Assembly (NCBI GenBank): GCA_016783555.1
Contig: JADHWH010000002.1
Coordinates: 2,037-66,036, forward strand
DNA length: 64,000 nucleotides
Direction: 5' to 3'
Origin: Candidatus Omnitrophota bacterium
Lineage (GTDB): Bacteria; Omnitrophota; Gorgyraeia; JABMRJ01
The notes under the pieces were generated by a model. It searched no databases and was not told the DNA's origin. It saw only the letters and a program-made list of their open reading frames with translations. Each line of letters opens with the position of its first letter. Position 1 is the stretch's first letter. This document shows positions 53,674 to 58,704 of this stretch, one piece after another. The position numbers were made by a program, and so were the translations under genes.

Positions 53674-54885
53674 CTACTCTTTTATAGGTCTTTCTTTCAG
53701 GGGTTTAAATGCATAACCGCTGTCGGCAGAAGGAAGGCCCGCCGCAGGCTCAACCAGCAGGAAATCACCCTTTTTAATCCATTCTTTCAATGTCTTTGCA
53801 ATCTCAAGCGCTTTCGGGTAACTGGAAAGCGGAGCCGTGGGCACATCCCTGCCCTGAACCTTTATTGTGCCGCTTTTAAGCTCTTCATAATTGACTTCAC
53901 CCAGACTCCCGGATTTCCCCTGCGGATAATCTTGACCATAATCGACTATCTGTGCCCATATCTCTTTATCGCTTACGGCGGTATATCGGCATATCTCCTC
54001 GTTTAGTATCGGGATGGGGATACCTATACCTATGGTAAGCGTTACGCCATATCCCTGGAAGGAGGTTCCCACCAGATATTTGGGCGACATATTCTTTAGA
54101 TCTCCCAATAGGGCCAATGTGCCTGCCGGTACTTGAGGCACGCCGTTACCCTTGCGCTTAACACCGGGGTTATGCTGCGTGCCGTGCCAGACGATATAAC
54201 CTACACCGCCGCCCAAAAATACCCTTGTCCCTATGCCGATAGTCTTATAGTAGGGGTCGTTTAAGAGGGGAGAAAGCTGTCCGGCAGAACAGTAATTGGC
54301 ATTGCCTAAGTGGGGTTTTAGCGCGCCCATGTAGGTATAGATAATTTTGTCAGAGAGGTTTACCGCTGCGTTGTAATTCTGGTAGACGTTTCTGGGATTA
54401 AACAAGACCGCCTCGTTTAAATCCTTTATGTTAATAAGAGTCTCGAGCTTCTTTCTGGGATAGCAGTCGGTGCCGTAGGTGGTAGCGGTCAGCTTCAGGT
54501 CTTTTCCCGCTACCAAGTCCTGTATTACGTGGGCGCCGCCGTATTTGAATTCTCCCGGATAGACTTTGTTTCTGGGATCATCGTCAGGCAGGATGGTGGC
54601 GCCGACATAAATGTCAACCGCGGCAAAACCGCCATACGCAGGGACGTCATTTATATATACCTTACCTCCGCCCAGCTTGATCTTCGGTTTGGAGTGGCCT
54701 GTATTGAAATAAGCGCCGGATGAGCACATAGGCCCGAATGTGCCTGTAGTAACTATATCGACTTCCTCAGCCGCCTGCTTCGACCCCTTCTTATTGACGA
54801 TTTCTATTATCTCTTCCGCTGTCGCAACTACTACTTTACCTTTTTTAATCTTTTCATTAATCTCTTTTATGGTCTTGGCCATCAC
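53674..54885 (-). CDS. DUF39/COG1900-like protein (putative sulfur-incorporating homocysteine biosynthesis enzyme)
   Basis: About 400-aa protein with Cys-containing motifs (GPMCSSG, TDCYP), in an operon with cysK and an Rrf2 regulator. Family assignment is from memory. Confidence 0.45.
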   Translation of the reverse strand: MMAKTIKEINEKIKKGKVVVATAEEIIEIVNKKGSKQAAEEVDIVTTGTFGPMCSSGAYFNTGHSKPKIKLGGGKVYINDVPAYGGFAAVDIYVGATILPDDDPRNKVYPGEFKYGGAHVIQDLVAGKDLKLTATTYGTDCYPRKKLETLINIKDLNEAVLFNPRNVYQNYNAAVNLSDKIIYTYMGALKPHLGNANYCSAGQLSPLLNDPYYKTIGIGTRVFLGGGVGYIVWHGTQHNPGVKRKGNGVPQVPAGTLALLGDLKNMSPKYLVGTSFQGYGVTLTIGIGIPIPILNEEICRYTAVSDKEIWAQIVDYGQDYPQGKSGSLGEVNYEELKSGTIKVQGRDVPTAPLSSYPKALEIAKTLKEWIKKGDFLLVEPAAGLPSADSGYAFKPLKERPIKE

Positions 54886-54938
54886 AACCTCCGCTTAGGT
54901 TTATTATACAACAAATTGTTATTACGTCACTAAAAAAA

Positions 54939-55880
54939 TTATCCTCTAAAAGGCCATGTGCTTAAGTATCGTTCCCCCGTATCCGGCAGTATAAGAACGA
55001 TCATCTTGCCTCTATTTTCAGGCCTCCCGGCTACTTCTATAGCCGCCCATGCTGCCGCGCCGCTTGATATACCTGCAAATATCCCTTCCTCCCTGGCCAG
55101 TCTTCCGGCAAGCCTGCCTGCGTCATCGTTTGTGACTTTTATAATCTCGTCAATTATCTTTGTGTTCAAGATCTTAGGAATGAATCCGGCTCCTATGCCT
55201 TGAATTTTGTGCGGTCCAGGCTTTTCGCCTGATAAGACGGGAGAATCTGCCGGTTCGACAGCCACCGCTTTAAACTCCGGCTTCTTCTTCTTTATGGCTT
55301 CGGCTACCCCCGTAATAGTGCCTCCCGTGCCGACACCGCTTACCAAGATGTCAACCTTGCCGTCCGTATCCCGCCATATCTCCTCGGCTGTAGTCTCTCT
55401 ATGTATTTTAGTATTGGCCGGATTATTAAATTGCTGGGGCACAAAGGTATCAGGGTTATCTCTTGCCAGTTCTTCAGCCTTCTTAACCGCTCCGAGCATA
55501 CCTTCATGGCCGGGCGTCAATACTAGTTCAGCGCCTAATATAGATAGTAAATGCCTGCGCTCAACAGACATAGTATCCGGCATCGTCAGGATTAAGTGGT
55601 AACCCCTTGCCGCGCAGACGAAGGCGAGGGCGATGCCGGTGTTTCCGCTGGTAGGTTCTATTATAATTGTATTCTTCTTTATCAGTCCCCTGTCCTCCGC
55701 ATCGCGAATCATAGATACGCCTATCCTGTCTTTTATGCTGGAAAGGGGGTTGAATGATTCAAGCTTGGCAATTACCTCCGCTTTCAAGCCCTCGGTTATC
55801 CTGTTTAATCTTACCAGCGGCGTGTTTCCTATTAATTCGGTTACGTCTTTGGCTATCTTTGGCATATTTTCCTCCGGCAT
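54939..55880 (-). CDS. cysK: cysteine synthase A (O-acetylserine sulfhydrylase)
   Basis: [16 protein letters not shown] lysine SSIKDR, GTGGT loop. Confidence 0.9.
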
Positions 55881-56323
55881 TAAATATTATAAATTAAAGA
55901 GGTCTCGAGTTTCTCCTTCCGGCGCCCTAGCAGATCCTGAAGGGTTATAGATTCCAGGGTGCGGGTTATATTCTCTTTCAGCTCTTTCCATACGTCTATG
56001 GTAATACAGTAATTAGTCCTATGGCAGAGGGCGGGGTTGTCGACGCATCTTACCGGCGCCAGCGACCCCTCCATTGTCTCCACTATATCTTTTAAGTTTA
56101 TTTTAGATGGGGATTTTGCAAGGGCATACCCGCCATGCGCTCCACGGCCCGAAGTCACCAGGCCCGCTGCTTTAAGAGGAGGCAGAAGGTGTTCCAGATA
56201 ACCTACAGATATCTCCTGTCTCCTGGCGATATCTTTCAATAAGATATTGCCCTTGCCATAATGTGAGGCGAGATCTATCATTAATCTCGCGCCATACCGC
56301 GATTTAGTTGAGAGTCGCATCAT
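55880..56323 (-). CDS. Rrf2-family transcriptional regulator with three-Cys (IscR/CymR-like) cluster site
   Basis: w[21 protein letters not shown]...; Cys triad [14 protein letters not shown]. Confidence 0.8.
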
Positions 56324-56426
56324 TACTATTTACCTCCGGTTACAATAACCTACTAATCTTATTAGATTAATAGGAATTATATATCAATGGGTAAGGTTTG
56401 TCAAGAATTTTTTTATAAAATTTTAC

Positions 56427-56474
56427 TTTAAAGATCCTTCGCCCTATAGGCCTCAGGATCAAGTCAAATTTGCT
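56427..56474. promoter_or_regulatory. 48-bp conserved box with near-perfect palindrome (GATCCTTCGCCCTATAGGSCTCAGGATC), copy 1
   Basis: 47/48 identical to 57151..57198. Sits upstream of a TTGACA -35 and a further 11-bp-arm palindrome, in the divergent region between Rrf2/cysK and the 56556 ORF. Confidence 0.45.
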
Positions 56475-56555
56475 GATGCAAATTTGACTTGACAAATATA
56501 GCTAATACAGCTAATTTATTATAACTGCCACAAAGACATAGATGAGGTCTAGGAT

Positions 56556-57113
56556 ATGGGCTACGCCCAAGCTGTAGAAAAGGCATGGAATGATATTACG
56601 GCTTTAGCCGGAGATAACAAATATTCAGTAAAATTTTTAGCAGATACTTACGATGTGGATCTGGATAAAAGAGAGGTCATCTCTCTATCCTGCAACACGC
56701 CTGCAAAAGAATATATAATTGTACTTCTATTGCACTACCTTAAAAAGAGGCTCAAGCTTAAGATCCTGCCTGCGCCTACAGGGGAATGGATAAATTTCAA
56801 GCAGCTTGAAGGAGGTGACGGGTATTACCCCGCCTTTAAAAAGCGAACCATAGATGTCGTATTAAGGAAATACCGAGCCAATCCACAGGCCATACTGGAT
56901 TTAATCGGCCGTTTTTGCGCAAAGAGGGTCCAGATAGGGGATCTCGGGGTTGTTATAGAGGCCTTAGAAAAAGTACCTATCCTTATAACCTTATGGAAAG
57001 GGGATGAAGAATTCGGCCCTGAGGCAAATATACTATTCGATGCCGGCATAGCCGAGATATTCTGCACCGAGGATATAGTAGTGCTTACCGAATTCCTGGT
57101 CCATTTACTGTGA
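56556..57113 (+). CDS. hypothetical protein (possibly DUF3786-like)
   Basis: 185 aa, no motif I can assign confidently; preceded by the conserved box. Confidence 0.4.
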   Translation: MGYAQAVEKAWNDITALAGDNKYSVKFLADTYDVDLDKREVISLSCNTPAKEYIIVLLLHYLKKRLKLKILPAPTGEWINFKQLEGGDGYYPAFKKRTIDVVLRKYRANPQAILDLIGRFCAKRVQIGDLGVVIEALEKVPILITLWKGDEEFGPEANILFDAGIAEIFCTEDIVVLTEFLVHLL

Positions 57114-57150
57114 GCGCTGGCGGGGGTTGCCTCCGCTTAAATTTTTAAAT

Positions 57151-57198
57151 AAAATTTTACTTTAAAGATCCTTCGCCCTATAGGGCTCAGGATCAAGT
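57151..57198. promoter_or_regulatory. 48-bp conserved palindromic box, copy 2
   Basis: Near-identical to copy 1; followed by palindrome AGTTAATT-N11-AATTAACT and promoter TTGACA-17-TATCAT. Confidence 0.45.
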
Positions 57199-57282
57199 TA
57201 ATTGTTTAAATAAAAATTAACTTGACATAATGATACTAATATGGTATCATTTAAAAGGAAGCAAAAAAGAGGGAGGTAAACA

Positions 57283-57360
57283 ATGCATCTCGGAATAAGA
57301 TATATGTTGAGGCCGGTTGCGCACTGCAAAGAAGGGTGTTGTAGCAAGTCCCGGGCATGA
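57283..57360 (+). CDS. 25-codon Cys-rich upstream ORF (MHLGIRYMLRPVAHCKEGCCSKSRA) with very strong SD
   Basis: AAGAGGGAGG-6nt-ATG. Followed by a GC-rich hairpin (GCGCCGCTCGCTT...AAGCAAGCGGCGC) and then the second Rrf2 gene. Below the ORF-track size cutoff. Confidence 0.3.
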   Translation: MHLGIRYMLRPVAHCKEGCCSKSRA

Positions 57361-57448
57361 CGTTAAACCGCCCCTAGCACTATGATTGCGCCGCTCGCTT
57401 CTTTAATATGCAAAATAAGCAAGCGGCGCAAAACATGGGGGAATTATT

Positions 57449-57862
57449 ATGAAACTTATTACGCGAGATACGGATTATGCGATAAGGGCCATGTGTGTTA
57501 TCGCTAAGCGGAAAGATAAGGTGGTCTCTGTCAAAGACTTGACCGATTACCTCAAGGTTCCGAGACCGTTTTTAAGGAAGATACTACAGATTTTAAATAA
57601 AAGAGGACTGCTAAAATCATATAAAGGTATAGGCGGCGGTTTTACGATAGCTCTTTCGCCGAAGAAGATATCATTAGTTAAATTAATAGAGGTCTTCCAG
57701 GGGCCGATAAGACTTAGTGAGCATAAATTAAAGAAGAAGATCTGTCCAGAGGCCAAGATCTGCCTTTTAAAAAAGAGATTGGATAATATTGAGAAGTACG
57801 TTAAGGCTAGATTAGAAGCCATTACATTAGAGACTTTGATTGAGGAAGCAGGGAGGATTTAG
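57449..57862 (+). CDS. Rrf2-family transcriptional regulator (second copy)
   Basis: wHTH MKLITRDTDYAIRAMCVIA...; C-terminal Cys pair CPEAKIC. Confidence 0.8.
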   Translation: MKLITRDTDYAIRAMCVIAKRKDKVVSVKDLTDYLKVPRPFLRKILQILNKRGLLKSYKGIGGGFTIALSPKKISLVKLIEVFQGPIRLSEHKLKKKICPEAKICLLKKRLDNIEKYVKARLEAITLETLIEEAGRI

Positions 57863-57864
57863 AG

Positions 57865-58704
57865 ATGGCAAAGAGGAAGATTATAAAGATCGATGAAGAT
57901 AAATGCAACGGCTGTGGGCTCTGTATACCGAACTGCCCAGAAGGGGCCTTACAGCTAATAGACGATAAGGCGCGCCTTATAAGCGATCTCTTCTGTGACG
58001 GGTTGGGTGCCTGCATCGGCCACTGCCCCGAAGGCGCTATTACTATAGAGGAAAGAGAAGCCGAGCCGTATAACGAAAAGAGGGTCATGGAGAATATAGC
58101 CAAACAGGGAAAGAATACTATAAAAGCGCATCTGGAGCATCTTAAGGAACATGGCGAAAACATTTATCTTAACGAAGCGATACAGGCCTTGAAAGATAAA
58201 GGTATAGAAGTCCCTGACTTGGAAAAGGGACCCGCCGGCGCGCATACACACCATGGAGATTCTTCTGAATGCCCCGGCTCGAAGATGGTGGAATTAAGAC
58301 CAAAGGCCGGCAAAGATAAACCGGGAGCCAAAGGAATGCCGCAATTAAGACAGTGGCCGGTCCAGATAATGCTTGTGCGGCCGTCCGCGCCGTATTTAAA
58401 CAACGCAGACCTTTTAATAGCGGCCGATTGCGTTCCGTTTGCTTATGCGGATTTCCATCGCGATTTACTGAAAGGCAAGGTTTTGCTTGTAGGCTGTCCT
58501 AAACTGGATGACATTGGATTTTATAAAGATAGGTTTACAGAAATTTTTAAAAACAATCATATAAAATCTGTGACGTATGCCCACATGGAAGTTCCATGCT
58601 GTTCTGGTATGATAAAGGCCGTTGAATCGGCTATTTCTCTATCGGGTAAAAAAATCCCCTTCAAAGAGATTACTATAAGCATAAAGGGAGAGAGGCTAAA
58701 ATGA
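57865..58704 (+). CDS. 4Fe-4S ferredoxin-domain protein with uncharacterised Cys-containing C-terminal domain
   Basis: CNGCGLCIPNCP and CDGLGACIGHCP cluster motifs; C-terminal VGCPKLDD...PCCSG. Confidence 0.6.
   Translation: MAKRKIIKIDEDKCNGCGLCIPNCPEGALQLIDDKARLISDLFCDGLGACIGHCPEGAITIEEREAEPYNEKRVMENIAKQGKNTIKAHLEHLKEHGENIYLNEAIQALKDKGIEVPDLEKGPAGAHTHHGDSSECPGSKMVELRPKAGKDKPGAKGMPQLRQWPVQIMLVRPSAPYLNNADLLIAADCVPFAYADFHRDLLKGKVLLVGCPKLDDIGFYKDRFTEIFKNNHIKSVTYAHMEVPCCSGMIKAVESAISLSGKKIPFKEITISIKGERLK

Follow-up and report, generated by a model that had tools for sequence, protein, structure and literature searches.

Upstream of the second Rrf2-family regulator gene in a stretch of 64,000 nucleotides (nt) from a Candidatus Omnitrophota bacterium (GenBank assembly GCA_016783555.1, contig JADHWH010000002.1, positions 2,037 to 66,036 of the forward strand; the whole stretch is called the window below), we found an element only about 110 nt long that combines a small open reading frame (sORF) of 25 codons with an RNA pseudoknot at its end. 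Judged by its conservation in relatives, the sORF is a genuine unannotated gene and a member of a large family, and the element as a whole would represent a new unannotated family of the leader-peptide or upstream open reading frame (uORF) kind, with an integral pseudoknot absent from Rfam and a predicted leader function. The reading frame, its conservation and coding signature, the pseudoknot, the promoter and operator sequences and the linkage to downstream genes are direct observations. We give about an even chance to the proposal that sORF and pseudoknot form a cis-acting leader that would make the ribosome pause at Gly18/Cys19 through the combined action of nascent peptide and knot. The coordinates of all features are collected in Table 1.

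The small open reading frame is conserved as a peptide

An initial annotation, made from the window alone, had described a cysteine-rich reading frame of 25 codons with a GGAGG Shine-Dalgarno sequence at a spacing of 6 nt, followed by a GC-rich hairpin and the Rrf2 start, and all four were found at the positions given there. The three cysteines that it had counted in the last 11 residues are encoded at 57325-27 (Cys15), 57337-39 (Cys19) and 57340-42 (Cys20), and the conserved core of the peptide spans codons 5-19 (57295-57339). Its ranking of the Shine-Dalgarno sequence among the best of the window also holds, since the 64 kb contain 22 GGAGG-N4-9-ATG sites when both strands are counted, and this one thus belongs to the top tier, though it is not unique. 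A reading frame of 25 codons is by itself not beyond chance; it is conservation that shows the sORF to be real.

When the Rrf2 protein alone was used as query, ten loci were obtained, all from metagenome-assembled genomes (MAGs) of Candidatus Omnitrophota or from MAGs labelled 'Planctomycetia'. Four of these ten carry the same sORF between the same promoter and Rrf2, and the codon differences within HCKEGC are synonymous. A degenerate DNA pattern for P[VI][AV]HCKE[GV]C, which fixes residues 11-19, was then scanned over metagenome contigs. At least 120 contigs match, whereas none of 2.9 million viral contigs, which served as a specificity control, does so. All of the matches listed are family members that keep the frame and a fixed spacing to the ATG, and 123 of 126 members have a strong Shine-Dalgarno sequence.

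To avoid circularity, statements on the conservation of residues 11-19 are based on copies ascertained through Rrf2: of 17 independent loci selected solely for their Rrf2 orthologue, 13 have the sORF within a few kb of it. Leu9, Cys15, Glu17 and Cys19 are present in 13/13 of these copies, and the substitutions seen among them are P11A (loci L133 and L138), H14R (L002), K16S (L140) and G18V (L001). Loss of the frame or of the Cys codons in related genomes had been named as grounds for giving up the original idea; the frame, Cys15 and Cys19 are kept in every copy, including these 13. The third cysteine fared differently, as Cys20, which forms the Cys-Cys pair of the window, occurs in only 13 of the 97 distinct class-A copies (the classes are defined below).

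These 97 copies give the consensus M-[DRK]-[IV]-T-[IV]-[RK]-Y-M-L-R-P-V-A-H-C-K-E-G-C. Over codons 3-13, their fourfold-degenerate third positions hold 0.02-0.28 bits, compared with 0.8-2.0 bits at first and second positions. The [IV][RK]YMLRPVAHCKEGC stretch is kept at the amino-acid level, so that conservation reaches beyond the Cys codons, and positions 3-19 as a whole are nearly invariant as amino acids with their synonymous sites free. This third-position wobble in codons 1-19, including codons outside the search pattern, argues for selection at the protein level. At codon 20 the codon-periodic conservation ends and conservation at the nucleotide level begins. The stop codon is placed after codon 19, 20, 21, 23, 25 or 27, and beyond Cys19 neither sequence nor length is constrained (20 to 34 residues).

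The peptide has no match in Pfam, NCBIfam or the PDB sequences, a literature search with the string HCKEGC found no paper containing the motif, and a protein database of 5.8 billion sequences returned only five unnamed clusters for an artificially extended query of 43 residues. Within the window, sORF and knot occur as a single copy. The family appears to be phylum-wide in Omnitrophota, judging from MAG titles and from the names on Rrf2 homologues, the metagenome contigs themselves carrying no taxonomy. At locus L137 (3740-3800), a decayed remnant of the sORF (..NVTVECML-stop) was observed, with core and knot deleted; a different Cys-rich reading frame of 14 codons, MLLLSVCCEGRCEG, stands in its place and overlaps the Rrf2 start codon.

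A conserved pseudoknot overlaps the end of the reading frame

The initial annotation had missed the conserved RNA part of the element, which, according to the covariation in an alignment of 101 distinct copies (alignment A2, in which column n corresponds to window position 57318+n), is a pseudoknot. Stem S1 is formed by columns 30-32 with 41-43 (GUC/GAC) and stem S2 by columns 35-39 with 51-55 (GGGCA/UGCCC). The 5' arm of S2 lies inside the S1 loop, which gives the topology of an H-type pseudoknot. In the window, the UGA stop codon is shared between loop L2 and the 3' arm of S1, and loop L3 contains another in-frame stop, UAA at 57364-66.

Compensatory changes are found in both stems. S1 appears as CUC/GAG in six copies and as GCC/GGC in three, with zero unpaired cells at its three pairs (pair 30-43, GC in 94 copies and CG in 6; pair 31-42, UA in 98 and CG in 3). 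In S2, pair 36-54 is GC in 93 copies and AU in 7, pair 37-53 is GC in 93, AU in 4 and GU in 4, and pair 35-55 is GC in 77 and GU in 20. Pairs with double changes amount to 4/5 in S1 and 5/6 in S2. Frequent G.U and rare A.C combinations place the structure in the sense-strand RNA. Overall, 87% of the knot cells are paired, compared with 25-50% when the partner is slid. On four of five measures the observed values are attained by 0 of 500 shuffles, and on the fifth (further pair types) by 3 of 500. The knot motif matches once in the window, where no match is expected.

Loop L1 spans an S2 of 5-6 bp with 1-2 nt, L2 consists of 1 nt, and L3, which is A-rich, crosses an S1 of 3-5 bp with 5-7 nt; by general pseudoknot rules these lengths are sterically compatible with stacked helices. 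The invariant unpaired bases are C33 in L1 and A47-A49 in L3, within (G)UUAAAC. A simple GGGCA/UGCCC hairpin with a conserved loop was also considered and is ruled out by the covariation of S1 (GUC/GAC to CUC/GAG and GCC/GGC). Pairing of the sORF Shine-Dalgarno sequence and AUG with the region after the reading frame, which occurs in the minimum-free-energy fold of the window, was likewise rejected, as it is not conserved by RNAalifold in sets of 97 and 37 relatives.

The position of the knot relative to the peptide is also kept. Counted from the Cys19 codon, column 34, with which the 5' arm of S2 opens, lies at a constant 12 nt and S1 at 6-8 nt, and this holds for classes A, B and C alike. 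Five knot-less variants, four of them of class B, end in ...HCKEGC-stop.

Searches against Rfam 15, whose families include preQ1-I/II/III, SAM-II/V, fluoride and guanidine-III, left sORF and knot uncovered at E <= 10 over 56000-58500, the weak and far sub-threshold matches in this interval falling on the GC-rich hairpin and its flanks. Across the whole window only tRNAs match at the gathering score, and 11 consensus-like loci have no Rfam match at E <= 1.

Some copies of the knot are unusual. Locus L068 (1690-1760) has two tandem knots after one sORF, the first being the compensatory variant GAGGCA/UGCCUC. Insertions of about 48 nt lie inside L3, just after the sORF, in L040, L119 and L024 (also in L027, L104 and L105). 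They bear the terminal inverted repeats CCCCGTTAnAG...CTnTAACGGGG and a duplicated TAAAC, and look like miniature mobile elements that target the knot site. Within the coding part, A2 columns 5-10 could pair with columns 19-24 (57323-28 with 57337-42) in a hairpin of 6 bp in the His-Cys-Lys-Glu-Gly-Cys-Ser codons, with a Shine-Dalgarno-like AAGAGGG in its loop. Its cells are paired in 92% of cases, a figure to be read with the facts that the synonymous changes all keep a G-Y pair and that the search pattern fixes these codons.

Peptide subclasses are linked to different downstream genes

The sORF is always co-oriented with a gene and lies a short distance upstream of it. Among the roughly 113 loci whose sequence continues downstream, Rrf2 is the next gene in 67. 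Other genes in this position encode secreted metal-binding YHS/TRASH proteins (nine loci) and PNP_UDP_1 phosphorylases (three loci), and further ones encode PEBP, thiol peroxidase (Tpx), rubredoxin, a CDF transporter, desulfoferrodoxin, DUF3786, flavodoxin-like proteins and ribonucleotide reductase. Three subclasses of the peptide can be distinguished. Class A (MxxT[IV][RK]YMLRP...) stands mostly before Rrf2 (64/89), class B (MARNxIRW[ML][IL]RP...) never does so and is mostly found before YHS/TRASH proteins, and class C (MKRY[ML][IM]RP...) precedes a PNP_UDP_1 phosphorylase in 4/4 loci.

The location of the element varies, as it lies after Rrf2 in L002 and 1.5-2.5 kb downstream of Rrf2 in L007, L008 and L010. 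In L134 (12821-12985), sORF and knot are found away from Rrf2, between the genes of a hybrid-cluster protein and a ribonucleotide reductase, which indicates that the element also occurs inside operons.

Between sORF and Rrf2, the gap is 88 nt in the window, compared with a typical 30-45 nt, rich in AU, in relatives. Among the short-gap loci, 23 of 41 have the Rrf2 ATG in the frame of the sORF (binomial p = 0.002, uncorrected for relatedness), with 1-4 in-frame stops intervening, and this excess probably comes from shared ancestry. A fusion of the peptide to Rrf2 by frameshifting or readthrough was considered and rejected because a slippery site is lacking and stops lie in the way: the sequence before the knot, which reads GAG GGN UGY AGU in A2, contains no X XXY YYZ heptamer, and the other frames, as well as readthrough from the sORF, run into stops.

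The GC-rich hairpin lies outside the conserved element

The GC-rich stem of 12 bp to which the initial annotation had drawn attention is present, with one C.A mismatch in addition to its 12 pairs, and the folding energy of the gap region is -23.8 kcal/mol, with z = -5.7 relative to shuffled sequences. Its conservation, which had been proposed as a check, was not borne out. In 42 of 67 Rrf2-linked relatives, fewer than 30 nt separate the knot from the Rrf2 Shine-Dalgarno sequence, which leaves no room for a hairpin, and where gaps are longer the hairpins are unrelated in sequence to that of the window. The GC-rich hairpin is therefore a lineage-specific palindromic insertion between the knot and the ribosome-binding site of Rrf2, outside the conserved element.

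Two further interpretations were discarded. The hairpin is unique in the window, which speaks against a repetitive extragenic palindromic (REP) element repeated there. Neither the knot nor the hairpin qualifies as an intrinsic terminator, as there is no consistent U-tract and T-runs occur in a minority of copies only; in the window, the hairpin is absent from the output of the terminator scan and has no T-run behind it on either strand.

Promoter, predicted operator and surrounding operons

The promoter upstream of the sORF is near consensus, scoring 11/12 plus the TG extension in the promoter scan. The predicted transcript start near 57257 leaves a leader of about 26 nt, so that the sORF would be the first cistron of its own transcript and head the Rrf2 operon of oxidative/nitrosative stress. 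In 56 of 61 Rrf2-linked relatives, the same cTTGACAAATGATACTAnTATGGTATCATT is found 19-45 nt before the sORF ATG.

The operator palindrome, which occurs once in the 64 kb of the window, lies inside the promoter in 56/61 Rrf2-linked loci and is kept before Rrf2 orthologues with or without the sORF. At loci that lack the sORF, the palindrome promoter directly precedes Rrf2 as a leaderless gene. The palindrome at 57230-57250 is probably a binding site of Rrf2, and autoregulation of Rrf2 is predicted because the palindrome promoter stands before Rrf2 orthologues regardless of the sORF. An Rrf2 domain protein and a conserved inverted repeat over its own promoter, the features of an autoregulated Rrf2-family repressor operon, are both found here. 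Upstream of the Rrf2 match in L002 (2357-2383), L008 and L010, where the sORF is missing, no more than 6-7 nt separate the -10 box from the Rrf2 ATG, which suggests that Rrf2 is made there from leaderless or nearly leaderless mRNA.

Upstream, a DUF3786 gene closes with a terminator at 57119-37. Between this terminator and the promoter, a perfect palindromic element, GATCCTTCGCCCTATAGGGCTCAGGATC, was noted at 57167-57194; pieces resembling it occur inside a long insertion of L039, and it may belong to a family of REP-like repeats or of repeats like miniature inverted-repeat transposable elements (MITEs).

Rrf2 (Pfam PF02082, E = 4e-30) is the first long gene of its operon and is followed by genes for Fer4/AF_0155-like, Zn-ribbon, NifU-like, FNR-like, rubrerythrin and desulfoferrodoxin proteins. 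In relatives, the Rrf2-headed operons contain genes for Fer4/AF_0155-like, hybrid-cluster, flavodiiron, rubredoxin, desulfoferrodoxin, rubrerythrin, ferritin, NifU-like and FNR-like proteins. This content is the oxygen (O2) and nitric oxide (NO) detoxification set of anaerobes.

The first Rrf2 gene of the window (55880-56323, - strand) heads an operon with cysK and homocysteine-biosynthesis (HcyBio) genes (53674-56404), whose promoter is a perfect TTGACA-17-TATAAT at 56404-56376. It is a separate unit, divergent from the stress Rrf2 operon. The divergent pairing of these two operons recurs in L140 and L141, and in L136 they lie within 6 kb of each other on the same strand.

Table 1. Positions of the conserved element and of neighbouring features in the window
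Feature	Position	Strand	Details
Sigma-70 promoter	57222-57250	+	-35 TTGACA 57222-57227, 17-nt spacer, extended -10 TGgTATCAT ending at 57250
Palindromic operator (predicted)	57230-57250		ATGATAC-N7-GTATCAT; overlaps promoter spacer and -10 box
Shine-Dalgarno sequence of the sORF	57267-57276	+	AAGAGGGAGG, 6 nt ahead of the ATG
Conserved sORF, 25 codons	57283-57360	+	MHLGIRYMLRPVAHCKEGCCSKSRA; ATG 57283, TGA 57358-57360
H-type pseudoknot, 26 nt	57348-57373	+	overlaps the sORF end; from alignment A2 and pair counts
Stem S1, 3 bp in the window	57348-50 with 57359-61		GUC with GAC
Stem S2, 4 bp in the window	57353-56 with 57370-73		GGGC with GCCC
Loops of the knot in the window	57351 (plus 57352); 57358; 57362-68		L1 C; L2 U; L3 GUUAAAC
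GC-rich hairpin	57388-57429	+	arms 57388-57400 and 57417-57429; 12 pairs and one C.A mismatch
Rrf2 Shine-Dalgarno sequence and Rrf2-family regulator gene	57437-57862	+	GGGGG 57437-41; gene 57449-57862

A proposed translational leader and its alternatives

A short reading frame that is conserved as a peptide, co-oriented with a gene and immediately upstream of it has the features of a leader peptide, and the placement upstream of the gene that it would regulate agrees with what the initial annotation had assumed. The linkage of subclasses to gene families, together with the constant co-orientation, is the behaviour of a cis element. We therefore favour a cis-acting leader, which is probably a translational control element rather than a classical cysteine attenuator. 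In the mechanism that we propose, the Gly18 and Cys19 codons would occupy the P and A sites of a ribosome that has reached the knot, and its exit tunnel would be filled by the conserved peptide. The knot, or in knot-less variants the stop codon right after Cys19, would hold the ribosome at that point. As known from frameshift signals, a structure at a spacing of 6-8 nt reaches the ribosome entry channel while the ribosome is decoding the codons that precede it. Because S1 begins 6-8 nt after the Cys19 codon, or a stop codon is found at the same place, slowing would occur at the same residue in both arrangements. The dwell time would be set by the state of the His-Cys-x3-Cys segment, which is probably the sensing part, or by the supply of Cys-tRNA, and would in turn determine how strongly the following cistron is expressed, be it by coupling or reinitiation or by protecting the mRNA. 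Translational coupling is suggested by four Rrf2 genes that start 8-16 nt past the knot without a Shine-Dalgarno sequence of their own, and by L050, where the sORF stop overlaps the Rrf2 ATG as UAAUG.

Several points weigh against this proposal. At the Rrf2 loci L005, L136, L137 and L139 the sORF is missing or only a decayed remnant is left, so that it is dispensable. In 56 of 67 cases Rrf2 has its own Shine-Dalgarno sequence about 30 nt past the knot, and the downstream gene may thus be translated independently. RNAalifold and the terminator scan revealed neither a terminator nor an alternative pairing between the knot and the downstream ribosome-binding site, and no known arrest motif (RAPP, RAGP, the W-D-P spacing of TnaC or similar) is present in MxxT[IV][RK]YMLRPVAHCKEGC. 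We infer pausing and the cis effect from geometry alone, and the signal, whether thiol, redox, metal or cysteine supply, is likewise conjectural; a stable free peptide would give the same coding signature.

The main rival follows from this last point. The functional product could be a free small protein, that is, a cationic peptide of 20-27 residues with His-Cys-x3-Cys acting as a metal- or redox-active mini-protein or as a partner of Rrf2 or of stress proteins, whose gene travels with the regulon; the pseudoknot would then be a 3' stabiliser of the mRNA, a processing barrier or an intercistronic insulator. The small metal-binding peptide that the initial annotation had offered as its alternative is of this kind and stays in contention, and we regard the free-protein explanation as less probable than the cis-acting leader. 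Selection on the amino-acid sequence, the strong Shine-Dalgarno sequence, the varied positions (before Rrf2, after it in L002, farther downstream in L007, L008 and L010, and before the ribonucleotide reductase gene in L134) and the Shine-Dalgarno sequences borne by most downstream genes all speak for it. In addition, C-x3-C, which we take to be part of the metal site of YHS/TRASH domains, is shared with the proteins encoded right after class-B copies. Three subclasses that are each tied to a different downstream gene family are, however, cis-like and would be unusual for a trans-acting protein. A free peptide also gives no role to the fixed spacing from a conserved pseudoknot that contains the stop codon, nor would it explain why conservation ends exactly at Cys19 and gives way to free sequence and length. 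Moreover, no modification, export or partner genes are found nearby, and the searches of Pfam, NCBIfam and PDB described above gave no match.

A classical cysteine-codon attenuator, as the initial annotation had suggested, would work through scarcity of Cys-tRNA, which stalls ribosomes at the Cys codons and thereby changes the hairpin or the knot, the peptide sequence being irrelevant. Some observations fit such a device: both Cys codons (15 and 19) are in every copy, and a ribosome with Cys19 in its A site would sit just before the knot and keep it open. The regulon is also rich in Cys-liganded metalloproteins and adjoins the cysK/HcyBio operon here and in L140 and L141, and cysteine-responsive sORF attenuators are known in mycobacteria (bioRxiv 10.1101/834739). 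We nevertheless consider it improbable. The whole peptide is conserved, unlike in attenuators that count codons, with fifteen non-Cys residues as conserved as the cysteines, and there is no Cys run at the level of the family, where Cys15 and Cys19 are separated by Lys-Glu-Gly and the Cys-Cys pair is confined to the minority of class-A copies noted above. The GC-rich hairpin is neither conserved nor followed by a U-tract, and no conserved structure sequesters the downstream ribosome-binding site or forms a terminator/anti-terminator pair. The identity of the downstream genes also speaks against it: they comprise the Rrf2 operon of O2/NO stress, genes of metal proteins and others, and those of cysteine biosynthesis are not among them.

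An element of RNA only (a riboswitch or protein-binding RNA with an incidental frame), or a recoding signal that extends the peptide by frameshifting or readthrough, might be read from a 26-nt knot with invariant unpaired bases and the size of the smallest known aptamers, from the possible coding hairpin and from the frame-0 excess of Rrf2 starts, but it is very improbable, since RNA structure cannot explain free third positions next to constrained first and second positions in codons 3-13, start codon and Shine-Dalgarno sequence persist throughout the family, the peptide is retained in variants without a knot, there is no slippery heptamer ahead of the knot, in-frame stops separate sORF and Rrf2, and no Rfam family matches.

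Returning to the cis-acting leader, we put forward a fuller version of it only tentatively, with rather less than even confidence. In this version the element would be a two-part translational sensor, made of a tunnel-length peptide with an invariant His-Cys-x3-Cys at its peptidyl-transferase end and of a knot at the mRNA entry channel, whose pause would report thiol, metal or redox status or cysteine supply and so set oxidative-stress and metal-homeostasis genes across Omnitrophota.

In any case, a gene that is conserved across a phylum has been invisible to annotation pipelines because its 20-27 codons fall below the cut-offs of gene callers. If peptide and knot cooperate in pausing, the element would be a new design of bacterial leader-peptide sensor, and possibly the first case of sensing by cysteines in so short a nascent chain. 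Operator, Rrf2 and leader together offer a regulatory handle on the O2/NO and metal defences of uncultivated anaerobic Omnitrophota.

Comparison with known systems

Compact H-type pseudoknots include the frameshift-stimulating knots of luteoviruses and the aptamers of the preQ1-I, SAM-II and fluoride riboswitches. The knot described here shares with them two short helices, an L1 of 1-2 nt and an A-rich L3 that is able to lie in the groove of S1, and its spacing of 6-8 nt from the decoding site matches that of frameshift stimulators. It differs from both groups in having no slippery site, a stop codon inside, no overlap with a ribosome-binding site and no Rfam match, so that the resemblance to frameshift-stimulating and preQ1-type knots is, as far as analogy goes, one of topology only.

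Known arrest peptides include TnaC and SpeFL, which sense small molecules, and SecM, MifM and the RAPP class, which monitor Sec; to our knowledge, none of them has an RNA pseudoknot at the ribosome entry channel. Like the sORF, these arrest peptides are encoded by short leader reading frames that are conserved as peptides (PMC10987492, PMC10951233). A further likeness is a conserved segment of about the length of the exit tunnel that ends at the proposed stall site and is followed by variable residues. They have no motif in common with the peptide described here, for which stalling is a prediction.

The polycysteine sORFs of mycobacteria are leaderless and contain two or more Cys codons in a row; they stand ahead of cysteine-metabolism genes and act by releasing a sequestered ribosome-binding site (bioRxiv 10.1101/834739). 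They too are short unannotated Cys-codon reading frames and first cistrons, and the position of the ribosome has been proposed to remodel the mRNA structure (bioRxiv 10.1101/834739). In contrast, the element of Omnitrophota has two separated cysteines in a fully conserved peptide, a strong Shine-Dalgarno sequence, stress and metal genes downstream and no conserved structure that sequesters a ribosome-binding site.

The nearest functional analogue, and a precedent for sensing by cysteines of a nascent chain, is CruR (DUF2946) of Bordetella pertussis, a copper-responsive uORF whose nascent Cys motif has been proposed to perceive the signal (PMC9426467). CruR has about 120 residues, a signal peptide, a CXXC motif, a C-terminal RAPP and a long GC-rich intergenic region with Rho-dependent termination (PMC9426467). 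The element described here has 20-27 residues, H-C-x3-C, no RAPP and an integral pseudoknot; CruR is thus five times longer, has no knot and shows no sequence similarity to it. What the two have in common is a reading frame at the head of an operon, an invariant Cys motif and, in CruR and by prediction here, post-transcriptional control of downstream genes, with homologues that head operons of related function (PMC9426467).

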